From the sequence record OZ346167.1: a DNA stretch of 64,000 nucleotides; one strand, 5' to 3'. The translations under genes and the position numbers were made by a program. The stretch is from a phage. Each line of letters starts with the position of its first letter. Positions within the stretch are counted from its first letter, which is position 1. Under the pieces are notes generated by a model that ran no database searches, had not been told where the DNA came from, and was given only the letters and a program-made list of their open reading frames with translations. This document shows, one piece after another, positions 4,602-48,408 of this stretch.

Positions 4602-5117
4602 CTATTTAACCTCAAAAACTGGCTCAAGAACCAATATAAAGTCTACACAGTCATCTTCTTCATCCAGAATACCATCAAAGTTCTTAGGAACGAAGTCGAA
4701 GAGGCTCATAACAAAACAGTCAGAAGTGACCCTGATAGTTCCTCCCATGTTCTCTACAGTTAACACTGTACGACTTTCTTTTACCTCCCTCAGAAGATTA
4801 CTCACAAAGTCATCTAAGAAGTACTTCATCAATGACTTGAAACCTTTAGGGTAATCTGTACCAGAGTATGTTTCAATCTGTGGTACAAGCTTAACATTTA
4901 TACTAGTCTTTGTTAAGAACGTTTTAGAGAACATACTATCAGGTAACTTACAAATAGTCTTTCCAGTACCTTCATGTTCAATCTCAACAAAACCAGCTTC
5001 ATCGCCACACGTAACTATTTTAAAAGATGCTTCATTTTCATACTGTGAAGCCATAAACTTTTTAAGCATCTCTTTAAGGAAGTCTGCATGAGCATCTTGT
5101 AAGAAGATATCAATCAT
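4602..5117 (-). CDS. Hypothetical protein
   Basis: 171-aa ORF, tightly packed in operon. Confidence 0.55.
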   Translation of the reverse strand: MIDIFLQDAHADFLKEMLKKFMASQYENEASFKIVTCGDEAGFVEIEHEGTGKTICKLPDSMFSKTFLTKTSINVKLVPQIETYSGTDYPKGFKSLMKYFLDDFVSNLLREVKESRTVLTVENMGGTIRVTSDCFVMSLFDFVPKNFDGILDEEDDCVDFILVLEPVFEVK

Positions 5118-5130
5118 AGTTAATCACCTA

Positions 5131-5490
5131 TTATGGGAACAAGCACTTAATGTCGTCGTTTTTGAAAACAAAGCTTGTGTAGTTATGACCGTCAACATCC
5201 AGCCAAACAGCCTGAACATCTACACCATCAAGATTCTGGTAAAGCTCTTTGATGAAGTAGTCTTTCACAATCTGACTGCTAGTTGTTTCCAGCTTAATGT
5301 TCGAGATTGCTGAACCTACAGCCATATAGCCCATGACACGTTTCTTCTCAGTATGCTTAATCTTACCATCTTTGTAAGCCATAATGAGATTGGAAAGAAT
5401 CTTTACACCATAATACTTTTCAAGGTGAGTAGGTACACCATAAAAGCCTAATGCGAAGTTTTCAGAGTGGATAATGTTTTCACGTTTCAT
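5131..5490 (-). CDS. Hypothetical protein
   Basis: 119-aa ORF. Confidence 0.55.
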   Translation of the reverse strand: MKRENIIHSENFALGFYGVPTHLEKYYGVKILSNLIMAYKDGKIKHTEKKRVMGYMAVGSAISNIKLETTSSQIVKDYFIKELYQNLDGVDVQAVWLDVDGHNYTSFVFKNDDIKCLFP

Positions 5491-5491
5491 A

Positions 5492-5791
5492 TTAGTCTGC
5501 CAACCTTAAATTGAAATTAACACCAAATTTTTCACATACTTCCAACATATACTCAAGTGAAACATTCCCAGTGAGGTGGATTATGTTGGATACACGAGCT
5601 TGAGAGATACCACAAATTTTAGCAACTTGCTCTTGAGAAAGACCTCTGGATTTAATCTCTCTCTTAAAACGATGTGCAACGAAGTCTCTCATTTCGTCTA
5701 CATCCATTGGACAAATATAACTCTCCATTTCAGCCTCTCTATCAGCCTCCCAATCATCTTGTGGAGCATAAGGGTCAAAAACCTCATTCAT
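5492..5791 (-). CDS. HTH (XRE-like) DNA-binding protein
   Basis: helix-turn-helix segment LSQEQVAKICGISQARVSNI; start chosen at internal Met to avoid overlap with upstream ORF. Confidence 0.6.
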   Translation of the reverse strand: MNEVFDPYAPQDDWEADREAEMESYICPMDVDEMRDFVAHRFKREIKSRGLSQEQVAKICGISQARVSNIIHLTGNVSLEYMLEVCEKFGVNFNLRLAD

Positions 5792-39250: not shown

Positions 39251-40030
39251 ATGGGTATTGTAAAAGTTGTAAAAGGTAACTTACTGGCTGCCTTCAAAAA
39301 CACAGATATTGAGTTAATTGCTCATGGTTGCAACTGTCGTAACCTCATGGGTGCTGGAATCGCTCAAAAAATTGCTAAGATTTTCCCAAAAGCTGAAGAA
39401 GCTGACCGGAAATTCCATAAAAAGTTTGGCTACAGTGCTCATGATATCGGATACCAGATGGTGGGTGAGGTGTCACATGCTCGAACGGAGTACGGTTACA
39501 TTTTTAACCTGTATACACAGTTGGATGTTGGGAAGTGTGCATCATACCGATACTTAGTGGAGTCACTAGAAAAACTCCGTAAGTTTTGCTGGCTGCACAA
39601 CATTCGTAAGATTGGTTTACCCATGATTGGTGCAGGTATCGGTGGTTTAGATGCACAAGCTGTGAAAAGCCTCATTAATAGTGTTATGTACAACGTTGAT
39701 GTGTACCTATATGTCTATGATGAAGCAATGGCAAGTGTAGTTACCCCTAAGTATGCTACCTCAGCACCACAATTCTATGATGGTGTCGTGCTCAGTGATG
39801 GTAAGTCTAACCATGTTACCCTCTATCAGCTTGTTGATGGTGAAGTTGAGGTTAGTTACCCTCTGGTTAGTGAGATGGGTATGTGCAATAGTGAAATGTT
39901 CCCAGTTGACCCGTTTGGAAGATATGAAGGTGTATTCTTTGATAACTACCCAGCAGCGTACATCTACACAACAAATCAGGATGAAGTTCACTACTTGCTG
40001 TATTCTAAAAAGTTCAAATTCATAAGCTGA
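39251..40030 (+). CDS. Macro domain protein (ADP-ribose binding/processing)
   Basis: macro-domain hallmark AHGCNCRNLMGAGIA and second glycine-rich loop GLPMIGAGIGG. Confidence 0.7.
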   Translation: MGIVKVVKGNLLAAFKNTDIELIAHGCNCRNLMGAGIAQKIAKIFPKAEEADRKFHKKFGYSAHDIGYQMVGEVSHARTEYGYIFNLYTQLDVGKCASYRYLVESLEKLRKFCWLHNIRKIGLPMIGAGIGGLDAQAVKSLINSVMYNVDVYLYVYDEAMASVVTPKYATSAPQFYDGVVLSDGKSNHVTLYQLVDGEVEVSYPLVSEMGMCNSEMFPVDPFGRYEGVFFDNYPAAYIYTTNQDEVHYLLYSKKFKFIS

Positions 40031-40059: not shown

Positions 40060-40105
40060 TAAGAAGGCTGCCTAACCCATTGAAAAATTTAAGGTAAGGC
40101 GGCCT
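40060..40105 (+). terminator. Terminator-like hairpin
   Basis: AAGGCTGCC..GGCGGCCTT + TTTTC. Confidence 0.5.
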
Positions 40106-40420
40106 TTTTCATTTTCAATTTGTGCAGGTATCTGTAGGGGTCTGTACAGATATCCCAAAAAATCTCATCGCCGGATAGAAAAATCATTCTCAAAACGTGC
40201 AGACCCCGCTCAGGTCGGGCAAGAAAAATCATTTTAGAATTGTGCAGGTAGGTTTTTATAGAGAGCCAGCCCAGCCCCTCTCCCCCTCTTACTCCCCCTC
40301 TCCCCAAAAGTCAAGAGAAAAATTTGTAGCGGATTGAAAAATAATTCTTGATTTGCGTTCTGTTTTGTGGTAGTCGTGCGCACCCGTTTCATTACAGTTT
40401 TGCCAAAAATATTTTTAAAA
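40105..40420. repeat. Iteron-like direct repeats (AAAAATCATTnnnAnnnTGTGCAGG, about 4 copies) with a C-rich tract CCCCTCTCCCCCTCTTACTCCCCCTCTCCCC
   Basis: repeat copies near 40105, 40185, 40222, 40322; no ORF with RBS. Confidence 0.55.
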
Positions 40421-40426
40421 TTTTTA

Positions 40427-40518
40427 TTGACTCTTTGAACGTGGTTACCTAATATTTACATCAACGGGGAGGGAATGACCTTCCCCACTAAATAAAATCC
40501 TAAACTGGAGATTCAAAA
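40427..40518 (+). promoter_or_regulatory. Early-type promoter (TTGACT-N17-TAATAT) + leader hairpin GGGGAGGGAATGACCTTCCCC + conserved RBS leader
   Basis: type-2 reiterated element, also at 43068, 43934, 45178, 45745, 46339. Confidence 0.6.
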
Positions 40519-40707
40519 ATGGCATCAAGAAAAATTAAAGTTGGCGATGAGGTTAACATCAAGCACGAACACTCTTACAAAATGCTAACTATACGCTCTT
40601 ATAAGGTTTATCAGGTGGAAGCTATCCACAAAGATAACACTTTTTCCTTAAAAGGTTATAGCGAACGTTTCCCTGCTGAACTCTTTGAGAAATGGAGCGC
40701 GAAATAA
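40519..40707 (+). CDS. Early small protein
   Basis: 62-aa ORF behind type-2 element. Confidence 0.55.
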   Translation: MASRKIKVGDEVNIKHEHSYKMLTIRSYKVYQVEAIHKDNTFSLKGYSERFPAELFEKWSAK

Positions 40708-40913
40708 TGCTTTACAGTCGTGAATTGATGGTTACAACTAACGTTAACACAAAGGTAAAACGTTTTTACATGCAAATTTGTGGCGTATGGTCTAGAATAT
40801 CAGAGGCTGACTATTGCAACTATGTAGAAACAGCTATAAACTCTAATTGCTATCTTACAAGAAATACAAGAAAGTACATAAGACAGACAGCAATTTACTA
40901 CTACGATAAATAA
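40707..40913 (+). CDS. Early small protein
   Basis: ATG overlapping upstream stop (TAATG). Confidence 0.5.
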   Translation: MLYSRELMVTTNVNTKVKRFYMQICGVWSRISEADYCNYVETAINSNCYLTRNTRKYIRQTAIYYYDK

Positions 40914-40999
40914 AGTACTTTACAAGGGGCTTATAGTTCGATAAAGTAAGCCCCAGATAAAGAGCTTTACCACTAAATCCTAAACTGGAGAACTTAAAA
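40914..40999 (+). promoter_or_regulatory. Type-1 intergenic element: hairpin GGGGCTTA..TAAGCCCC + conserved leader AGATAAAGAGCTTTACCACTAAATCCTAAACTGGAGA
   Basis: reiterated at 41384, 41762, 42362, 43435, 44226; stem shows compensatory changes. Confidence 0.6.
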
Positions 41000-41380
41000 A
41001 TGGCATACCGCGCACCGAAATTCATCAATAAAGAAAATTTTCGTAATGTATTAGAGAAGGCGCTTGATGAAAAATTTAACGGCAAAATAATTGTTGTTCA
41101 CTCGTTCAATTTCAAGTATGATATCAACGGGAATAAAATCAACCATTACACGGCAACCATGTTAGATGGCAATCTTTCAAGTGAAAAAGCCGTACTGAAT
41201 GCACTTGCTGGACGTGGAAAAAATCTGATAAGATGTGATAAGAGACGTTATCAGGGCGGCGCATATGGTTATGATGATGCTATCTATCATCTTGAAAATA
41301 TGGGCTATCAAGTAGAAAAAGCTGGAGTATCACAAATCATCGGGAGCGATGGTTATGTAACAATCTTCAAAATTAACTGA
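41000..41380 (+). CDS. Early small protein
   Basis: 126-aa ORF behind type-1 element. Confidence 0.55.
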   Translation: MAYRAPKFINKENFRNVLEKALDEKFNGKIIVVHSFNFKYDINGNKINHYTATMLDGNLSSEKAVLNALAGRGKNLIRCDKRRYQGGAYGYDDAIYHLENMGYQVEKAGVSQIIGSDGYVTIFKIN

Positions 41381-41383
41381 TAA

Positions 41384-41469
41384 AGTACTTTACAAGGGGC
41401 TTATAGTTCGATAAAGTAAGCCCCAGATAAAGAGCTTTAACACTAAAATCCTAAATTGGAGATTCTAAA
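41384..41469 (+). promoter_or_regulatory. Type-1 intergenic hairpin/leader element
   Basis: same sequence family as 40914..40999. Confidence 0.6.
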
Positions 41470-41763
41470 ATGGCTATTATCAGAAACGTTGTAATTACTG
41501 CAAAGACTCGTGATGACGCTCGCGCTATGGCTAAAAAGTTATGCGGGAAAGTGGTTGACAACGGAAAACAATCTGCTGTAAGATGGGGCGTAAAGGTTGA
41601 TAAACATTTGAAGTTAAAAAATTCACCGATAAACCTTTTTACATGTGTAAACACTATCGGGAAGACAAATGTATACACGAAAAAGGCATATATTAGACGC
41701 GTAGCATTAACATCCCCCATTCGTACAATGAGAAGTTATGCAAAGCTAAAAATTAACAAATAA
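41470..41763 (+). CDS. Early small basic protein
   Basis: 97-aa ORF. Confidence 0.55.
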   Translation: MAIIRNVVITAKTRDDARAMAKKLCGKVVDNGKQSAVRWGVKVDKHLKLKNSPINLFTCVNTIGKTNVYTKKAYIRRVALTSPIRTMRSYAKLKINK

Positions 41764-41848
41764 AGTACTTTACAAGGGGCTTAAAAGCTGGTATCTTAAG
41801 CCCCAGATAAAGAGCTTTACCACTAAATCCTAAACTGGAGATTCCAAA
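41762..41848 (+). promoter_or_regulatory. Type-1 intergenic hairpin/leader element (loop variant)
   Basis: GGGGCTTAAAAGCTGGTATCTTAAGCCCC. Confidence 0.6.
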
Positions 41849-42361
41849 ATGAAAACTGTAGACGCTACCTTTGAAGTTGTAAAAGAAAAATTCACCATTA
41901 TTTATGAAGCTGTTAATTGCTACGAAGCAAGCCATAATCTTGATAATTGGAAGTTTACAGATGACCATCAAGGCGGCGTGACTATTAAAAACCCTAACTG
42001 TCAGCGTAACGATTTTAAATATGCAATCCCTTTAAATTATAGCCTTAAACAGCTTTCTAGTGACTATGCAAAACAAGGCCGGGAAAACCCATCAAAAGAG
42101 GCTTACACCAGCTTACAGAAAGAACTAGAAAGAGATTTAGAGGCTTCAGAATACAACCTTGCCGCGAAAGTTATCGATGCAAATGGCAACACGGTTTTAG
42201 AGAGTTTTTATCTAGGATATGCCTTTGATTGGTGCTATAGTGACGGCGATGATTTAGATGACAGACTAAAAGAGGAAGTGAACAATTCAGACGCAGAATC
42301 TGAAGTATTAGAACGTCTGGAATCATTAAAAGACTCAGTGATGAATATCTTTAAGAACTAA
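41849..42361 (+). CDS. Early protein
   Basis: 170-aa ORF. Confidence 0.55.
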   Translation: MKTVDATFEVVKEKFTIIYEAVNCYEASHNLDNWKFTDDHQGGVTIKNPNCQRNDFKYAIPLNYSLKQLSSDYAKQGRENPSKEAYTSLQKELERDLEASEYNLAAKVIDANGNTVLESFYLGYAFDWCYSDGDDLDDRLKEEVNNSDAESEVLERLESLKDSVMNIFKN

Positions 42362-42448
42362 GTAGATTTCTTTACACGGGGCTATCAAGCTGATAAGATA
42401 GCCCCAGATAAAGAGCTTTACCACTAAATCCTAAACTGGAGATTCAAA
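42362..42448 (+). promoter_or_regulatory. Type-1 intergenic hairpin/leader element (compensatory stem variant GGGGCTAT..ATAGCCCC)
   Basis: covarying stem with conserved flanks. Confidence 0.6.
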
Positions 42449-42745
42449 ATGAAATTATCAAATAAAGTCCGTGAAAATCTAAGCAAGTTACTCAACAAAA
42501 TTGATTTTATCGAGACATCAAGGAATAGCCACGATGTTATGGAATGGTTACACGGAAAAATTAAAGGCCGTCGTGTAGTGATTTGCTTATGGAATAGTTG
42601 CAGGGAGTATAAAAAACCTGTATTGCAAGTCAATATTTATGATGATACTTTTAAAAGTCCAGTAAAGTCTAAAAGTGATTTATTAGAATCCTATGAGATA
42701 GCTGTAAGTGGCAAAGTATCACGTAAAGAGGAATCACCATGCTAA
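42449..42745 (+). CDS. Early small protein
   Basis: 98-aa ORF. Confidence 0.55.
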   Translation: MKLSNKVRENLSKLLNKIDFIETSRNSHDVMEWLHGKIKGRRVVICLWNSCREYKKPVLQVNIYDDTFKSPVKSKSDLLESYEIAVSGKVSRKEESPC

Positions 42746-43071
42746 TGACTGGCATCACTGCAATTATAGCCATTTTCGCGCTCTATAAGGCATATAAAGC
42801 CTATAATCTAGCAAATAAGGCAATCACACAGCAGGTTAGCAACAGCCTTGTAGAGAGCTTTCTAGAGCGTTTGAGTGATGAACAATTAAAACGGTTAGAA
42901 ATGAGCTTCAGATTTCAATCAAAAACTTATCAAATCAGCGACATTTTCAAAGATGATTTTCAGCTAGTCGATGATTATAATGCTCTGATAAATGCTTTAA
43001 ATATCAGTGACTTAAAAGACTATTACGCTGTAATTGTTCAAGAATTAAGCAAACGAAAACAAAACTGTTGA
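42739..43071 (+). CDS. Early small membrane protein
   Basis: N-terminal TMD ITAIIAIFALY. Confidence 0.5.
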   Translation: MLMTGITAIIAIFALYKAYKAYNLANKAITQQVSNSLVESFLERLSDEQLKRLEMSFRFQSKTYQISDIFKDDFQLVDDYNALINALNISDLKDYYAVIVQELSKRKQNC

Positions 43072-43161
43072 CACTGATTTCTAGATAGATTAAATTACAC
43101 ATCAACGGCGAGGGAATGAACTTCCCCACTAAGTAAAGTCCTTAAACTAGGAGATTCAAAA
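43068..43161 (+). promoter_or_regulatory. Type-2 element: TTGACA-N17-TAAATT promoter + leader hairpin
   Basis: -35 overlaps upstream stop codon. Confidence 0.6.
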
Positions 43162-43434
43162 ATGTATACTACTAACAACGGTCGCACTTTGAACGTAACC
43201 CTGCACCACTATGTGAACGGTGTAATGCACTTCGAGGATTTACAAGCCGAACAACATATCTTAGATTGGCAACTTGCAGGACTCCAAAAAACTGCTACCG
43301 GATACGGGAAAAAGATTCCAACTAGCTGGAAAGTATACTACGAAGGACGTTTGCGCAGAATTTATCAGGATGTATATAGCAATAGCACAACAAGTTACAT
43401 CATGGTAAAAGGTAAAAAATTACACTTAGTATAA
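43162..43434 (+). CDS. Early small protein
   Basis: 90-aa ORF. Confidence 0.55.
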   Translation: MYTTNNGRTLNVTLHHYVNGVMHFEDLQAEQHILDWQLAGLQKTATGYGKKIPTSWKVYYEGRLRRIYQDVYSNSTTSYIMVKGKKLHLV

Positions 43435-43519
43435 AGTACTTTACAAGGGGCTTATAGTTCGATAAAGTAAGCCCCAGATAAAGAGCTTTATCACTCAATC
43501 CTAAATTGGAGATTCTAAA
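43435..43519 (+). promoter_or_regulatory. Type-1 intergenic hairpin/leader element
   Basis: same family. Confidence 0.6.
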
Positions 43520-43924
43520 ATGGCTATTAATAATCGTGAGTTATCAATCTTAAAAGCACGTTTGACCGTTAACCGGATTAATGTTATTACGTCATCAGCG
43601 CCTGATGAAACATTGCACAACATTATCGGAAAGATTCAAAGCGTTATCTTAGACGTTGAAAACGTAAAAAGTTCATTGGCTGACGTTGCAGCAGGTATCA
43701 CGCTAGACGGTGCGCAATATGAAATGGCTGACATGTTAGGCAAATCGAAGGTAATGAATAAAGAGCTTGATTTAAAAATGTTTCGATTTGCCGTGAAAGT
43801 ATGGTTATCTGTCGAGTATGACGCTAATTTTGCAATCGCTGATTTCTTTGCCACTTGGTTACAACGTAATTTGACAAATCATGATTTTCGTGGTGTCTGT
43901 GATGCAATTTATGCAGAACTCTAA
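43520..43924 (+). CDS. Early protein
   Basis: 134-aa ORF. Confidence 0.55.
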   Translation: MAINNRELSILKARLTVNRINVITSSAPDETLHNIIGKIQSVILDVENVKSSLADVAAGITLDGAQYEMADMLGKSKVMNKELDLKMFRFAVKVWLSVEYDANFAIADFFATWLQRNLTNHDFRGVCDAIYAEL

Positions 43925-43933
43925 AAAATTTTG

Positions 43934-44024
43934 TTGACACTGGTTTTTAGATAGATTAAATTACACATCAACGGGAGGGAATGACCTTCCCCACTAAATA
44001 AAATCCTAAACTGGAGATTCTAAA
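43934..44024 (+). promoter_or_regulatory. Type-2 element: TTGACA-N17-TAAATT promoter + leader hairpin
   Basis: near-identical to 43068 element. Confidence 0.6.
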
Positions 44025-44228
44025 ATGGCTATTATTAACGGCTTACACATTGAAACAACTCACATCAAAGATATTAAAGTTGGTGATGTAGTCCTTTCCC
44101 ACGGCGTAGAAAAAACTGTCACTGCAAAGGATATCAAAGAGGATTCTTTCATGGGTAGGACTCTCTTCGGTGATTCTTATTGCTTAGGGTATCTTGCAGT
44201 CTTAAAAGTTGTCAAAAATAACAAATAA
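44025..44228 (+). CDS. Early small protein
   Basis: 67-aa ORF. Confidence 0.5.
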   Translation: MAIINGLHIETTHIKDIKVGDVVLSHGVEKTVTAKDIKEDSFMGRTLFGDSYCLGYLAVLKVVKNNK

Positions 44229-44316
44229 AGTACTTTACAAGGGGCTTATAGTTCGATAAAGTAAGCCCCAGATAAAGAGCTTTACCACTAAATCCTTAAA
44301 CTAGGAGATTCAAAAA
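44226..44316 (+). promoter_or_regulatory. Type-1 intergenic hairpin/leader element
   Basis: same family. Confidence 0.6.
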
Positions 44317-44883
44317 ATGAAATGCTATCACGGCACTACTCTGAAAAACTTTGTAAACCTGCTTAAAGGTGGCAACAAGCCGGAAGGTATCTGGAACTGC
44401 TCTTACATGGATGATTGTTTTTACGTTTACCCGATGGATAAGATTATCAAGACGGAATGTCTGGAAGATGAAGAAGCTTCTTACATCCGTGAACGCTGCA
44501 TTCAAAACGCTTTAGAGTCGGGGCTTATTACGGCAGCTTTCCAAATGGAAACGCAGGAAGTGATTGTAATTGAGATGGATATCCCAGAGGAAGAACTTGA
44601 GGACGATTATTCTTGTGACAACATGAGCGAAATCGCCAGCTTTACCGGTTACTTTGATAAAGATTGGATTATTGGTATTCACTCAACGAAATTTAGTGCA
44701 ATGTATGCGCCATTCTTTGTACCTGATACAACTAACCGCAATTTGGGCTATATTGACGATGATTTGTTGAGTATTGCAAAAATTGTACAGGATAGCGGTG
44801 ATACTTCTTCTGTGTTTTGTGACCTGCTGGATAAAATTACCGAGAATCTCACAGAGCGCAATCTAAGCGACTTTTTAGACTAA
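44317..44883 (+). CDS. Early acidic protein
   Basis: 188-aa ORF. Confidence 0.55.
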   Translation: MKCYHGTTLKNFVNLLKGGNKPEGIWNCSYMDDCFYVYPMDKIIKTECLEDEEASYIRERCIQNALESGLITAAFQMETQEVIVIEMDIPEEELEDDYSCDNMSEIASFTGYFDKDWIIGIHSTKFSAMYAPFFVPDTTNRNLGYIDDDLLSIAKIVQDSGDTSSVFCDLLDKITENLTERNLSDFLD

Positions 44884-44946
44884 GCAGTACAAAGACACTA
44901 ATTTCCAACTTAAGGCCCATACAGGGCCATTTAAAGGGCTTAAATC

Positions 44947-45180
44947 ATGCTTACAACCGTTTACCTCATCCTTTCCATCTGTAATGGTCATTCATGCGAT
45001 TTTAAAGGGCTTGAAGAGTTTACAGGAAGTAAAGAAAATGCTATTCAAGTTTGCCAGATAGCACGGCAAGACTATCCCGCAAGTGATGATATACAATGCT
45101 ACTTTAAGACAGAAGATGAAGACGGCATCTATTTTGACAGCGTTGACGGTCAATATGAAATTATCATTGAAAAAGACTAG
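44947..45180 (+). CDS. Early small protein
   Basis: 77-aa ORF preceded by GGCCC..GGGCC hairpin. Confidence 0.5.
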   Translation: MLTTVYLILSICNGHSCDFKGLEEFTGSKENAIQVCQIARQDYPASDDIQCYFKTEDEDGIYFDSVDGQYEIIIEKD

Positions 45181-45271
45181 ACAAGCCTGATAAAAGTCTG
45201 TAAATTGTCAATCAACGGGGAGGGAATGACCTTCCCCACTAAATAAAGTCCTTAAACTAGGAGATTCTAAA
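45178..45271 (+). promoter_or_regulatory. Type-2 element: TAGACA-N17-TAAATT promoter + leader hairpin
   Basis: same family. Confidence 0.55.
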
Positions 45272-45613
45272 ATGGCTTATGTAACTGTAATTACCGATAA
45301 AGAAGATTCATCTTGGTCAACTCAAGTAAGTGATAAGATGTCACCTATGCAGTGCCTAAAATACTTTGAGCAGTGGAACAAAGGCGAGGATGTCAGCCCC
45401 TTTCAAGTGATGCAGATTATTCATGTAGACAATGAAGGGAAGAAAACGACTCTGAACAGTGAGTACTATGCGAGCCGCTTCGAAACGAGAAGTAAAACAA
45501 TGAAGCTTCTACGTGAATCCGGTTATTCTCATATTGCCGCGCTAATCTGGGATGACCTGCTAAAAAACCAACGTATCAGCTACGTAAAACCTGAAAAAAT
45601 ATTCATCAGTTAA
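45272..45613 (+). CDS. Early protein
   Basis: 113-aa ORF. Confidence 0.55.
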   Translation: MAYVTVITDKEDSSWSTQVSDKMSPMQCLKYFEQWNKGEDVSPFQVMQIIHVDNEGKKTTLNSEYYASRFETRSKTMKLLRESGYSHIAALIWDDLLKNQRISYVKPEKIFIS

Positions 45614-45645
45614 TCAATAACTTACAAAAAACTTTTTAAAAAGTA

Positions 45646-45833
45646 TTGACAATACCCCTTGACATTGGTAAATTTGTTCGAGGGGGTTTATCTAAAAGGG
45701 ATTCACTTAAAAGATTCTTTATAGATAAGCTTAAAAAATTGCTTGCAATCAGCTATCAAAACAAGTAAATTACTAATCAACGGGGAGGCAATAACATCCC
45801 CACTAAATAAAATCCTAAACTGGAGATTCTAAA
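45646..45833 (+). promoter_or_regulatory. Tandem early promoters (TTGACA-N17-TAAATT; TTGCAA-N17-TAAATT) + leader hairpin GGGGAGGCAATAACATCCCC
   Basis: same family; hairpin stem variant. Confidence 0.55.
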
Positions 45834-46364
45834 ATGAACAAATTTCAAGCTATCAACCACATTCGTTCAAATAGTGTCATGTCTAAGCCTGTAAAAGACA
45901 CATACGAATTTCGCTGCAATGGTGTACACTTTGCAACCATCACCAAATCAGAAAACGGGGCTTATTATATCCATCGCCGTAATGTTTCGACCGTTGTAGT
46001 CTCTCACTTTATGCAAGCTGTAGCGGAATTATTGCCGTTATTCTTAGAGATTTATCTAGATGAGTGTAAAAACGTTCACAACCACGTTAAAAACCTTTTA
46101 AACGGTTATAAAATGGCTTATGAACGTTCTATCAAGTCGCTAAACAAGTTCTATAAAGCCCCTGAAAATACTGTATCAATAGCTTATGATGTAAGCGGTG
46201 AAATGGTCAACCTCTCCAATGTAGAACAAATTGGCCTTTATGACTCACGTCCTAGCGGTTACTCTAAGACACTGGGAGAAGGATTATCTTTCAATATCAA
46301 GAACTTAGAAAAAACTTTAAAAGATATTGAAAAAGACATTGACGAGACAATCAAAAATCTGTAA
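45834..46364 (+). CDS. Early protein
   Basis: 176-aa ORF. Confidence 0.55.
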   Translation: MNKFQAINHIRSNSVMSKPVKDTYEFRCNGVHFATITKSENGAYYIHRRNVSTVVVSHFMQAVAELLPLFLEIYLDECKNVHNHVKNLLNGYKMAYERSIKSLNKFYKAPENTVSIAYDVSGEMVNLSNVEQIGLYDSRPSGYSKTLGEGLSFNIKNLEKTLKDIEKDIDETIKNL

Positions 46365-46432
46365 ATTGTCAATCAACGGGGAGGGAATGACCCTCCCCAC
46401 TAAATAAAGTCCTTAAACTAGGAGATTCAAAA
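46339..46432 (+). promoter_or_regulatory. Type-2 element: TTGACG-N17-TAAATT promoter + leader hairpin
   Basis: same family. Confidence 0.55.
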
Positions 46433-46681
46433 ATGGCTACTATCCGCGCAACTGTTAACGAATTTGGCTTCTACTCTCTGGACGTTAAATTTGACCTTGT
46501 AGGTACTGATAACGCCTTTGAAATGGTGAAAGGCCTTATCAGCCAGACCATCAGTGACTACAACCCCTCTGATGAATTCTGGAAAGAAACAAAACAAGAA
46601 GCCCTTAAAGATGGTTACACTTATCACTATTGGGGCGAAAAAATTGTCTCCCTGTACTACGACAAAGAAGGCACTAACTAA
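46433..46681 (+). CDS. Early small protein
   Basis: 82-aa ORF; last gene of cassette. Confidence 0.55.
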   Translation: MATIRATVNEFGFYSLDVKFDLVGTDNAFEMVKGLISQTISDYNPSDEFWKETKQEALKDGYTYHYWGEKIVSLYYDKEGTN

Positions 46682-46718
46682 ACGCCGCAACGGGGCTAAA
46701 TAGCCCAGATACCTTTAC

Positions 46719-46744
46719 AGCCCCTTTATATGGGGCTTTTTTAC
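46719..46744 (+). terminator. Rho-independent terminator ending the early cassette
   Basis: AGCCCC..GGGGCT + TTTTTT. Confidence 0.65.
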
Positions 46745-47040
46745 GTCCTATCAAATCCCTTATACAACCCTTTTCCTTTCCTTTCCAGAATCTTACCAGA
46801 CCTTAAAAGCAATAACTTTACAGCCTTTTACTAAGTCAATTAATTGGCCTTATTAATAAGTCCTTAAACATAAGCCAATAACCCCAGAAAGGGGCAACCC
46901 GTTTAAACGCTCTATAAAGCTCTATAACAGCCTTATCAACCTAACTTAAGGGATTGCATTAACTCACCCTAAAAAGCCCTTTATAAAGCTTCCCAGAGAC
47001 TTAAAAGAATCTTATAAAGGTGTAAGCTTTATTCATCCGT

Positions 47041-47244
47041 TTATAAAATAGGACTGTCAAGTTATTTTTTAGGGTCTTTGAAGGAACTCAAAAATATCTG
47101 TAGAAGATGTATATCTGCTTGGTAGCCCTTAACAATCCCTTACAAGTACTTTGCAAAATTTTAAAATATCCTTAACAATCTCTTAACAGTTCTCACATCT
47201 TCTTAACAACTCTTCAAAGGTCTTAACAGATTCTTAACAAACCC
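47041..47244. repeat. Left arm of ~204-bp inverted repeat
   Basis: reverse complement of 47677..47880 with about 2 differences. Confidence 0.8.
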
Positions 47245-47676
47245 TACATAGTTATGCTTGTTAGCCCCTTGTTAAATCTCTGTTAAGACCATGTAAAAGC
47301 CTTGTAAGAGCCTTTGACATAGCCTTAAAAGCTCCTGTAAAGCCCTATAAAGAGCTTTCTGTATAGTTGGGGTGTAACTACTAGGAAGAGACTTAAAAGA
47401 GCTTATAAAGAGCTATAGAGAGCTTTTAAGAGGTATGTTTAAAGAATCACTAAGAGGGAAAGGGAACTATAGACCAAGAGATAGTGACCATGTTAATAGC
47501 TTGTTAAAAAGATTAAACACTTGTTAGGAATTTGTTAATTATCTTAATTGGTATTGTTACCAATCCCTACAAAATAATCCTTTAAAATTAACTTGTTAGC
47601 TCTTGTTAGCAATCTGTTAAGATTCTGTAAAGTCTATGTAGCACTTGTTAGAGATTTGTTACACCCTTGTTAGTTC

Positions 47677-47880
47677 TGTTAAGAATCTGTTAAGACCTTT
47701 GAAGAGTTGTTAAGAAGATGTGAGAACTGTTAAGAGATTGTTAAGGATATTTTAAAATTTTGCAAAGTACTTGTAAGGGAGTTGTTAAGGGCTACCAAGC
47801 AGATATACATCTTCTACAGATATTTTTGAGTTCCTTCAAAGACCCTAAAAAATGACTTGACAGTCCTATTTTATAAAAAT
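47677..47880. repeat. Right arm of ~204-bp inverted repeat
   Basis: reverse complement of 47041..47244. Confidence 0.8.
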
Positions 47881-48408
47881 TTTAAGATTCTGAATAATTA
47901 ACTATACAGCCTTTTAAAAATACAGGTAATAACAGGCTTATAAGATACCTTGTTAGTACCGTGTTAGACCTTGTGAGATAAGGTCTGTAAAGATATCCCT
48001 GTTAAGTTTGTTAAAACAGTCTATATAGAGGCTTAGTAATACCTAGTGAACACCTATAGAGAGTGTCATAGCTGACATAGAGATTAAGAGGTGTATAGGG
48101 GCTTCTAAGAGGGTATAGAGAGACGGTTAAGGTGATTGTATAGGTTGTTAAGAAGGCTTGTTAGAAGAGTGTTTAGAAGGCTTGTTAGAGGGCTTGTTAG
48201 AAGGGTTATACAGAGGGGCTATTAAGACCACTAGATAGTTACTAAGATACTATATAGTACTATATAACTATATAGAGAGTAAGATTAAGAAGGTTGTTAA
48301 GAAGGGTAGATATTTTATTCACATATAATGGTGACCCAGAGGTTGGGACAACCGATAAAATTTTATAAAAATTAAAAAGCCCCCAATTAAGGAGGCTCTT
48401 AAGATATT

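Follow-up and report, generated by a model that had tools for sequence, protein, structure and literature searches.

Promoter-early stem-loops (PeSLs) are known from T4-like phages (Arbiol et al. 2010, PMC2839356; Comeau et al. 2014, PMC4122927). They are intergenic modules of approximately 100 bp with an A/T-rich tract, a sigma70-type early promoter and, at the 3' end, a Shine-Dalgarno (SD) sequence and ATG; the stem-loop, of the form Gn-loop-Cn, usually lies between the -35 and -10 hexamers or over the -10, and the T4/PST promoter consensus is TTTACW-N17-TAYWAT (PMC2839356, PMC4122927). PeSLs are tandemly reiterated before small ORFans in variable or hyperplastic regions, where insertions or deletions (indels) and replacements end in the repeats (PMC2839356, PMC4122927). 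In the literature on PeSLs, all papers that mention them concern T4-like phages. Here we describe a set of reiterated elements at positions 40427-46744 of a 64,000-nt (64-kb) stretch of phage DNA from sequence record OZ346167.1, referred to below as the window. We consider it likely that these elements form an array of PeSL-like regulatory cassettes, with one module of approximately 90 nt per intergenic space.

By sequence, the 6.3-kb region belongs with the Felix O1-like myoviruses (genus Felixounavirus, subfamily Ounavirinae); 255 phage records match, and the best match, Escherichia phage bumzen, is 93.5% identical over 93% of the query. It contains 15 open reading frames (ORFs) of 62-188 aa, all on the + strand, whose identity to ten relatives was 90%, 93% and 74% at codon positions 1, 2 and 3, respectively. 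Since position 3 is far less conserved than positions 1 and 2, the ORFs behave as real genes, as assumed in a preliminary description of this DNA made from the sequence alone. That description had also placed an element before every ORF. We found one before 12 of the 15 (six of type 1 and six of type 2), whereas the ORFs starting at 40707 and 42739 are translationally coupled and, for the one starting at 44947, the hairpin upstream is of another kind and no promoter was matched.

Like PeSLs, the elements have sigma70-like -35 and -10 hexamers with a spacer of approximately 17 nt (12/12), a stem-loop that lies over the spacer and -10 in type 1 and 10 nt after the -10 in type 2, an upstream A/T-rich tract, and a 3' end with an SD sequence and a start codon. 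They are likewise clustered (6.3 kb of 64 kb) before small ORFs without known function, the gene content varies among relatives, and indel boundaries fall in the repeats, little other intergenic DNA being available. The T4/PST promoter consensus resembles type 1. The differences are that the Ounavirinae, with genomes of approximately 87 kb, have no detectable sequence similarity to T4-like phages, that no U-tract follows the hairpins here, and that three features are not described for PeSLs, namely the outer helix of type 1, a second class with a hairpin in the 5' untranslated region (UTR), and the uniform leader. Moreover, promoter activity, stem-loop attenuation and mini-circles have been measured for PeSLs, with lacZ/GFP fusions and inverse PCR (Arbiol et al. 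2010), whereas the present evidence comes from sequence and its comparison. Since there is no sequence similarity and the lineage is a different one, the resemblance is one of kind and not of common descent. The elements thus make up a PeSL-like system newly described for Felix O1-like phages, in which the principle is known and the architecture of a promoter inside a processing-type hairpin is new. In the Felix O1 genome paper (Whichard et al.), the type-1 (57 bp) and type-2 (39 bp) sequences appear only as direct repeats, and other sequences were named as candidate promoters; in phage AYO145A, two type-2-like elements are annotated as promoters.

Promoters, hairpins and a common leader

The shared leader CCT(T)AAAYT(A)GGAGA was found in 12 copies between 40499 and 46425, all on the + strand, and nowhere else in the 64 kb; a related leader pattern gave 4 matches against 0.17 expected. 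In the form ACTAAAT..CCT(T)AAACT(A)GGAGATTCAAAATG the leader ends each of the 12 elements, with GGAG 7-9 nt before the ATG in every case, and RNA folding predicted it to be essentially unstructured. Type 1, with a GGGGCT..AGCCCC hairpin, has six copies (40926, 41396, 41776, 42378, 43447 and 44241), and so has type 2, with a GGG(G)AGG..CC(T)TCCCC-like hairpin and a CCTTCCCC-like 3' arm (40466, 43107, 43973, 45217, 45782 and 46378). The two families with their common leader were therefore as first described. When aligned on the ATG, 12/12 elements were in register, and a consensus scan showed a promoter match (TTGACA/TTTACA-N17-TAnnnT) at a fixed register in all of them. A/T-rich tracts such as AAAATATTTTTAAAATTTTTA lie upstream of the -35, and the intergenic space from stop codon to next ATG is almost wholly element. 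The identity of the elements to those of relatives was 88%, which is near that of codon positions 1-2 and well above that of position 3 (74%).

In type 1, promoter and hairpin occupy the same DNA. The matches to TTTACA-N17-TAnnnT start at 40919, 41389, 41769, 42371, 43440 and 44234; the 5' arm of the inner hairpin begins one base past the -35, and the -10 falls in the loop, extending to the first base of the 3' arm. We counted 67 copies in 12 genomes, plus two Erwinia variants with GGTG stems. The -35 was TTTACA in 66 of the 67 counted copies, and the -10 always kept T1, A2 and T6 at a spacing of 17-18 nt while its three middle bases varied freely (TAAAGT, TATCTT, TAAGAT, TAGTAT, TATGAT, TACCAT and others). 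Since this is the pattern expected of a working sigma70 -10, the comparison indicates that type 1 is itself a sigma70-type promoter with a hairpin in its spacer and -10. A transcript initiated 7-8 nt after the -10 would have its first base at the 3' foot of the inner helix (CCCC-A) and would lack the hairpin; the type-1 hairpin would be present only in read-through RNA from upstream, directly past the upstream stop codon.

Folding of whole intergenic RNAs showed that the hairpin extends into an outer helix, in which the block containing the upstream stop codon and the -35 (TAAAGTACTTTAC) pairs with a near-invariant block after the hairpin (ATAAAGAGCTTTA); the stop codon forms the first three bases of this helix. 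The complete structure comprises approximately 60 nt and 21 bp, arranged as a 12-bp lower helix, a 3x3 internal loop, a 9-bp upper helix and a terminal loop of 10-13 nt, and folds at -20 to -24 kcal/mol (z -1.6 to -4.1). A covariance model scored the six copies at 72-85 bits, and the next best match in the 64 kb at 17 bits. The MAFFT alignment (A1) had a 1-nt gap in the 3' arm, and pairs were counted in an equal-length arm alignment (A2) and a model-fitted alignment (A5). Among 45 distinct sequences, 97.8% of the cells of the inner helix were paired and four of its nine pairs had changed on both sides; the outer helix was 90% paired, and its pair 5-46 was G-C in 30 sequences and U-A in 11. Slid controls, with the 3' partners moved by 1-3 columns, were 27-54% paired. 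The model-fitted alignment, with 80 distinct sequences from 38 sources, gave 93.1% paired versus 30-55% in the controls.

Wobble pairs were found at pair 6-45 (U.G in 42/45), pair 20-31 (U.G in 23/45, C-G in 20) and pair 3-48 (U.G or G.U in 10/45), and each U.G pair is a C.A mismatch on the complementary strand. The covariation and these strand-specific wobbles argue that the type-1 structure has been selected as a + sense single strand, which, judged from the alignments, would most simply be RNA. The stem variant GGGGCTAT..ATAGCCCC at 42378, from which a conserved structure had first been suspected, proved real and is one among many compensated variants in the relatives.

Two further pairings in type 1 were tried and rejected. 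A small 5'-terminal hairpin within AGAUAAAGAGCUUUAC (helix 2) was 85% paired, with one pair mostly mismatched and no double-sided change, and was dropped because the outer helix uses the same bases. A pseudoknot-like pairing of ACTTTA with TAAAGT was lost in copies with other -10 hexamers. No Rfam family matched the elements, and a single sub-threshold match, to a Phe leader, lay outside the region.

Type 2 has the layout that had been proposed for it, a sigma70-like promoter followed by a hairpin: a TTGACA-like -35, N17, TAAATT, 10 nt (ACTAATCAAC), the hairpin and the leader. The -35, N17 and TAAATT were kept in all well-formed type-2 copies of the 12 genomes. Type 2 was assessed by position and energy statistics, and anchored pair counting was dropped, the lengths of the G-run and C-run differing between copies. 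The results showed 25 distinct hairpin sequences among 28 type-2 variants, with stems such as GGGGAGGG/CCTTCCCC, GGGAGG/CCTCCC, GGGC/GCCC, GGGGC/GCCCC, GGTGAGG/CCTCAC and GGGGAAG/CTTCCCC. The first paired base lay 11 nt after the -10 in 22 of the 28 (range 8-12), and 82% of the variants folded at -8 kcal/mol or lower versus 2.5% of control windows. By these statistics, it is the structure and its position that are conserved in type 2, not the sequence.

The discriminators between the -10 and the start are G+C-rich in type 1 (AAGCCCC) and A/T-rich in type 2 (ACTAATC). G+C-rich discriminators are typical of promoters that are sensitive to supercoiling and to guanosine tetraphosphate (ppGpp)/DksA, and the two promoter classes might respond differently to host physiology.

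Gain, loss and homogenisation of cassettes

The type-1 pattern was found at 1466 places in 289 phage records, comprising Felixounavirus, Mooglevirus, Suspvirus and 29 Erwinia (Kolesnikvirus) phages, and type 2 in 251 records from enterobacterial genera. The elements extend over the entire subfamily Ounavirinae. In IMG/VR, the type-1 pattern occurred only on 27 contigs, all of Felix O1-like size (54-94 kb). A map of the gene families in 12 genomes showed that gene order is mostly conserved and that changes hit whole cassettes: Felix O1 lacks ORFs 10-12, AYO145A, Michonne and mio carry an additional 87-aa cassette, and the Erwinia phage has a shuffled order. When the boundaries of indels of at least 40 nt were examined, 10 of the 11 independent ones lay no more than 8 nt from an element, versus a random expectation of 20%. 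The deletion in tootiki is 470 nt long, which is the exact spacing of the second and third elements (E2 and E3), and leaves one hybrid element.

At two diagnostic sites, T/T is present in 10/10 Michonne copies, versus A/C in five of the six copies in the window. In divergent genomes, the closest sequence to a copy was usually a paralog from the same genome (9 of 10 copies in Michonne, 4 of 4 in Erwinia phage MM7), which indicates, at the level of sequence, that copies are homogenised within genomes. Indel boundaries at the elements and homogenisation of the copies are what recombination between repeats predicts, and the comparison with relatives supports cassette-wise recombination of this kind.

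Citrobacter phage Michonne contains, at 4824-5598, a tandem duplication of one unit consisting of a 258-nt gene and its element, with a period of 430 nt, and at 5168-5254 an 'empty' leader, the ATG of which runs straight into the -35 of the following element. The stretch 4824-5598 looks like a fresh cassette rearrangement.

A proposed module for transcription, RNA stability and exchange

We propose that each module supplies a host sigma70-type promoter, through which each small gene could be transcribed alone by unmodified host RNA polymerase right after infection. Sequence and comparison show the module promoters, and their start sites are predicted positions. Each module also encodes a hairpin that, as the covariation and the strand-specific wobbles show, acts as + sense RNA. 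In read-through RNA, the type-1 hairpin may keep the cistrons apart and protect them, acting as an RNase III-type processing site, as a 3' barrier or attenuator, or as both, and the type-2 hairpin may be a 5'-terminal stabiliser; we put forward each of these specific roles, processing and 5' stabilisation, tentatively, as a possibility short of an even chance. The uniform A/U-rich leader, with its GGAG 7-9 nt before the ATG, would standardise translation initiation. Finally, each gene is flanked by modules that amount to long direct repeats of similar sequence, so that homologous recombination between them would delete, insert, duplicate and move promoter-plus-gene units and would homogenise the copies.

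The proposed role of the type-1 hairpin has a counterpart in R1.1 of T7, a 60-nt hairpin that has an internal loop and lies between the cistrons of genes 1.0 and 1.1 in the early polycistronic transcript (PMC6121014). The type-1 hairpin is similarly about 60 nt long, with approximately two helical turns and an internal loop, and lies between cistrons. Its internal loop is, however, symmetric (3/3) whereas that of R1.1 is 4/5, and type 1 is known here from sequence, R1.1 as an RNase III site. To our knowledge, a promoter embedded in the hairpin-encoding DNA is not a feature of the T7 RNase III sites. For the type-2 hairpin, the comparison is with 5'-terminal stem-loops of the ompA 5' UTR type, which Emory, Bouvet and Belasco are said to have described in 1992 as mRNA stabilisers in E. 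coli. A stem-loop close to the 5' end has the geometry that blocks 5'-end-dependent attack by RNase E/RppH. The type-2 hairpin starts 10-11 nt after the -10 and, with transcription starting 7 nt after the -10, would lie approximately 2-4 nt from the predicted 5' end of the mRNA.

It is doubtful, though conceivable, that type 1 also works as a dual-route generator of 5' ends, with a sigma70 promoter within the DNA that encodes an RNase III-type intercistronic hairpin. The predicted start (the A of CCCC-AGAUAAAG) would lie at the 3' side of the hairpin's internal loop, and initiated mRNA and processed read-through mRNA would have their 5' end and leader in common. After cleavage in the internal loop, the upstream cistron would retain a protective 3' hairpin, and the 60-nt palindrome would in addition be a recombination handle that moves genes between phages. 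If this were true, one short sequence would be promoter, processing site, stabiliser and recombination handle.

As arrays of small, mostly uncharacterised genes, each with a structured repeat and gained or lost as units, the cassettes resemble those of integrons. Integron cassettes, however, are promoterless and need an integrase, and their attC sites fold as single-stranded DNA, whereas each unit here has its own promoter, no recombinase gene is associated with the array, and the exchange looks like ordinary homologous recombination.

Several observations weigh against the array of PeSL-like cassettes that we favour. The -10 hexamers have only 4/6 consensus matches, and a simple promoter scan over the region was not enriched (31 matches vs 21.7 ± 5.0 in shuffles), so the promoter argument rests on register and conservation. 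The hairpin of the sixth element (E6, 43107) is the weakest copy and folds no better than shuffles (z -0.38). Many of the covarying sequences are orthologous copies, and the pair counts are of cells and not of independent events. Neither class of hairpin has a U-tract (1-2 T in the next 8 nt), and they are therefore not canonical terminators. Gene order is largely conserved among the enterobacterial genera, so that shuffling is mostly gain and loss; besides, the elements fill nearly all of the intergenic DNA, and whole-gene indels would end there regardless. The genes had been called early. Reverse transcription PCR on Felix O1 (Whichard et al.) bears this out for the cassette ORFs 16, 20, 21 and 22, which peak 5 min after infection, but not for genes 14, 17, 19 and 23, which peak at 25 min. 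No transcriptome, map of transcription start sites or transcript ends was found in the literature for any Felix O1-like phage; promoter use, start sites and processing are thus inferred.

Other explanations of the hairpins have to be weighed against the same data. They could be terminators or attenuators, as has been claimed for PeSL stem-loops, each cassette ending upstream transcription and restarting it, so that the genes would be insulated monocistronic units. The stem-loop of an RB49 PeSL reduced a downstream lacZ to the same extent as did rrnB T1 (Arbiol et al. 2010, PMC2839356), the type-1 hairpin stands immediately past the upstream stop codon, and a type-2 copy bears a terminator annotation in one relative, KhF2. 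Nevertheless, we consider this reading rather unlikely: both hairpins are followed by sequence other than a U-tract (AGATAAAG or ACTAAATA; 1-2 T in 8 nt), a terminator scan flagged 0/12 elements, yet found the true cassette terminator at 46719-46737, and an efficient terminator in the position of the type-2 hairpin, downstream of its own promoter, would abort its own transcript at approximately +30. A different role in RNA would be as protein-binding sites in the nascent transcript, for boxB/N-like antitermination, a translational repressor or an RNA chaperone, instead of nuclease or stability elements. The fixed distance of the type-2 hairpin from the start, its small purine-rich loops (GAUAA, GAAA, AAUGA) and the conservation of the downstream leader beyond the needs of the SD sequence would fit such sites. 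The variation in loop sequence and in stem length (4-9 bp) would, however, be unusual for a specific protein site, and there was no N-like or RegA-like candidate in Pfam/PHROG searches of the 15 ORFs and no match in Rfam, which leaves this reading improbable. Alternatively, the inverted repeats could act as double-stranded DNA, as palindromic operators at which a dimeric phage or host protein, bound over the promoter (type 1) or just downstream of it (type 2), shuts off early transcription. Early genes need some shut-off, the positions (between -35 and -10, or at +4 to +25) are classical for operators, and the AGATAAAGAG block is nearly invariant in sequence. Against this, the stems differ widely within one genome (GGGGCTTA, GGGGCTAT, GGGGAGGG, GGGC, GGTGAGG and others) with pairing kept, the loops range from 4 to 13 nt, and the T.G at stem position 5 in about half of the variants and the outer-helix T.G in 42/45 are mismatches in a DNA palindrome but wobbles in + strand RNA. 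We therefore regard operators as very improbable.

The preliminary description had taken type 1 for a hairpin followed by a MotA-dependent middle promoter, with GCTTTA approximately 11 bp upstream of TAAACT, which would form a second temporal class. GCTTTA or GATTTA does lie 10-14 nt upstream of TAAAYT in most of 68 copies (11-13 nt in 42/68), an arrangement like that of T4 MotA/AsiA promoters, in which a Mot box (TGCTTtA) stands 11-13 bp upstream of a -10 TAnnnT; Mot boxes also occur in the PmSLs of nt-1, a T4-like phage (Comeau et al. 2014, PMC4122927), and some Felix O1 cassette genes peak at 25 min. But no MotA or AsiA homolog was detected by tblastn at E <= 10 in the 64-kb window, outside of which lies approximately 23 kb of the genome, or in 11 related loci; the approximately 1150 phage records with MotA/AsiA genes all look T4-like, with genomes of about 167 kb, and no RNA polymerase modifiers were found in Felix O1 (Whichard et al.). 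The hexamer abuts the SD sequence: TAAACT ends approximately 1-3 nt before GGAG, and a start about 7 nt downstream would yield mRNA without a ribosome-binding site. Type 2 has this TAAACT-GGAG leader too, though it lacks GCTTTA, and in type 1 GCTTTA forms the 3' strand of the outer helix and covaries with its partner, the -35 block. Among the 68 copies, GCTTTA and TAAAYT are 1-17 nt apart, which alone would be no ground for rejection; the absence of MotA/AsiA, the clash with the SD sequence and the explanation of the motif as a helix strand lead us to reject a middle promoter as extremely improbable, and the promoter that we recognise in type 1, TTTACA-N17/18-TAnnnT, encloses the hairpin instead of following it. 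Finally, it is barely credible that the repeats are functionless leftovers of a single ancestral intergenic region that was duplicated serially. Copies in the same genome are highly similar, as such leftovers would be, but the flanking genes are unrelated to each other, the elements are conserved across four genera and approximately 290 genomes and far better than synonymous sites, and promoter-critical bases and base pairing are kept through compensatory change.

The genes, their elements and the neighbouring DNA

The cassette is the end of a long + strand unit that includes rIIA/B, polynucleotide kinase, spanins and a Macro-domain "phosphatase", and is bounded by intrinsic terminators at approximately 40061-40116 upstream and 46719-46743 downstream. 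The former (40061..40116, + strand) follows the Macro-domain gene and closes the upstream unit with a long G+C stem and then UUUUUCAUUUU (-24.7 kcal/mol, z -4.45); it has an annotated counterpart in AYO145A and corresponds to t13 of Felix O1. The non-coding stretch 40117-40426 before the first element contains three TTGTGCAGGTA-like motifs (40120, 40190, 40240) and a C-rich run, cccctctccccctcttactccccctctcccc, at 40275-40305, and Bas63 annotates two tiny - strand ORFs in this stretch.

The elements (E1-E12) and ORFs (1-15) follow each other on the + strand. The type-2 element E1 (40427..40518) has the -35 TTGACT at 40427, the -10 TAATAT at 40450-40455, its hairpin at 40466-40486, and GGAG at 40507 before the ATG at 40519; its 5' UTR folds at -17.9 kcal/mol (z -3.0) and an A/T-rich, UP-like tract lies upstream. 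It precedes ORF 1 (40519..40707, 62 aa, phrog_15633), which was found only in the window, in BPS17W1 and, at another position, in Michonne. ORF 2 (40707..40913, phrog_5293) is coupled to ORF 1 (TAATG); its start is better placed at the ATG at 40707, which gives 68 aa as in the homologs, and these have their own promoter-hairpin element in most relatives. In E2 (type 1, 40911..40999), the long hairpin extends over 40911-40970 and its inner helix over 40926-40954, with the -35 TTTACA at 40919, the -10 TAAAGT at 40942-40947 and the SD sequence at 40987 (-20.7 kcal/mol, z -3.26; covariance model 84.8 bits). The gene behind it, ORF 3 (41000..41380, 126 aa, phrog_4495), is absent from tootiki and Felix O1 and split in BPS17W1.

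E3 (type 1, 41381..41469) has its -35 at 41389, a -10 that ends at 41417 and the inner hairpin at 41396-41424 (z -3.11; 83.7 bits), and is followed by ORF 4 (41470..41763, 97 aa, phrog_5089), which has alleles of 97 aa and 85 aa and is tandemly duplicated in Michonne. The next two elements are type-1 variants: E4 (41761..41848) with the stem GGGGCTTAA..TTAAGCCCC and the -10 TATCTT (85.1 bits), and E5 (42363..42448) with the stem GGGGCTATC..GATAGCCCC, the -10 TAAGAT and an upstream arm of the 'variant B' type (-23.6 kcal/mol, z -4.06; 71.9 bits). E4 precedes ORF 5 (41849..42361, 170 aa), present in 12/12 genomes compared, and E5 precedes ORF 6 (42449..42745, 98 aa, phrog_4401), with which ORF 7 (42739..43071, 110 aa, phrog_4375) is coupled by a 7-nt overlap; ORF 7 has an N-terminal hydrophobic segment. 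In E6 (type 2, 43068..43161), the -35 TTGACA lies over the stop codon of ORF 7, the -10 TAAATT is at 43091 and the weakened hairpin at 43107-43127; ORF 8 (43162..43434, 90 aa, phrog_3436) comes next. E7 (type 1, 43432..43519; z -2.74, 84.5 bits) stands before ORF 9 (43520..43924, 134 aa, phrog_4327), and E8 (type 2, 43934..44024), with -35 TTGACA, -10 TAAATT at 43957 and a hairpin at 43973-43991 (z -1.9), before ORF 10 (44025..44228, 67 aa, phrog_3623). The promoter of E8 is annotated in AYO145A, and Michonne and SUSP2 have an unrelated 82-aa gene in the place of ORF 10.

E9 (type 1, 44226..44316; z -2.79, 84.8 bits) is followed by ORF 11 (44317..44883, 188 aa), and ORF 12 (44947..45180, 77 aa), the third gene without an element, has a small hairpin, GGCCC..GGGCC, upstream. 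The last three elements are of type 2. E10 (45178..45271) has the -35 TAGACA over the stop codon of ORF 12 and a hairpin at 45217-45237 (z -2.59), and precedes ORF 13 (45272..45613, 113 aa, phrog_4318). E11 (45743..45833), with -35 TTGCAA, -10 TAAATT at 45766 and a hairpin at 45782-45801 (z -2.03), precedes ORF 14 (45834..46364, 176 aa, phrog_4725). In E12 (46339..46432), the -35 TTGACG lies inside ORF 14, whose stop codon is within the -10 TAAATT; the hairpin is at 46378-46398 (-21.5 kcal/mol, z -3.36), ORF 15 follows (46433..46681, 82 aa, phrog_4559), and in AYO145A and mio the element is the site of a cassette insertion of 327-329 nt.

Between ORF 13 and E11 there is a structured, gene-less stretch of approximately 130 nt (45614-45745) with an orphan promoter, TTGACA-N17-TAAATT with extended TG, at 45646..45674 on the + strand. 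The promoter is enclosed by an ACCCC..GGGGT inverted repeat, and the stretch contains a second long hairpin (z -4.0). Relatives carry a small gene at this place (Michonne gp114, nataliec_25), and the stretch is probably the remnant of a lost cassette; it could instead encode a small RNA. After ORF 15, at 46693..46743 on the + strand, a degraded type-1-like hairpin (GGGGCTAAATAGCCC-AGATA) is followed by the cassette terminator (AGCCCC..GGGGCT and TTTTTT), which corresponds to t23 of Felix O1. The orphan promoter and the degraded hairpin resemble the "half PeSLs" of Comeau et al. (PMC4122927). Downstream of the cassette lies approximately 1.7 kb of non-coding DNA and then genes on the opposite strand. 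This DNA (46750-48400), between the + strand cassette and the - strand genes, contains many short motifs (CTTTACAG, CCCTTATA(C)AA, CTTTATAAAG) and is annotated as 'repeat_region' in relatives; it could be an origin, a packaging or terminal region, or a divergent promoter zone.

Pfam showed no domain in 15/15 ORFs, and each ORF belongs to a PHROG of unknown function, so that the absence of recognisable domains noted earlier stands at the level of sequence. It does not stand at the level of structure for ORF 11 (44317-44883), which has an ADP-ribosyltransferase fold with an NAD-binding split beta-sheet core; the other 14 proteins were without assigned function by sequence and structure work. In ORF 11, H5 (in the N-terminal CYHGTT), Y36/Y38 and E86 are conserved and are candidate residues of a catalytic triad (H-Y-E or R-S-E). 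Its homolog in Bas63, gp107, is more important on one host, and a resemblance to Tpt1 has been noted earlier. For ORF 5 (41849-42361), a confident model (predicted local distance difference test, pLDDT, 89) gave no convincing relative in a structure search. Just upstream of the cassette, at 39251-40030, the protein annotated as 'phosphatase' in relatives is a 259-aa Macro-domain protein (PF01661, E 1.2e-6), and the presence of this and the ADP-ribosyltransferase-fold protein in one early unit suggests a possible writer/eraser pair for ADP-ribosylation. None of the validated anti-defence genes of Bas63 (g77, g79, g80, g84, g85 and g130; PhageMaP) is in the cassette, and its description as a host-takeover or anti-defence array is a reasonable guess. 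With a Macro-domain gene nearby, the ADP-ribosyltransferase-fold protein offers a lead to the chemistry of host takeover.

In all 12 leaders, e.g. at 40487-40518, the ribosome-binding region is nearly identical over approximately 30 nt. Because the leaders are so similar, antisense or dCas13 guides targeted to ribosome-binding sites, as in the CRISPRi-ART screen of the relative SUSP1, would probably cross-hit several genes.

Felix O1-like phages have found wide application in Salmonella and E. coli typing, biocontrol and therapy, yet Whichard et al. had little to report on the initiation and timing of Felix O1 transcription. The modules proposed here would provide a concrete and testable transcription map for the accessory early region of approximately 290 sequenced phages, together with compact, naturally insulated expression parts and natural insertion sites for phage engineering. 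The array would also extend the PeSL principle, whereby regulatory repeats serve at the same time as handles for recombining accessory genes, to a second phage lineage unrelated to the first, and the comparison of the two suggests that a general solution may have arisen by convergent evolution.

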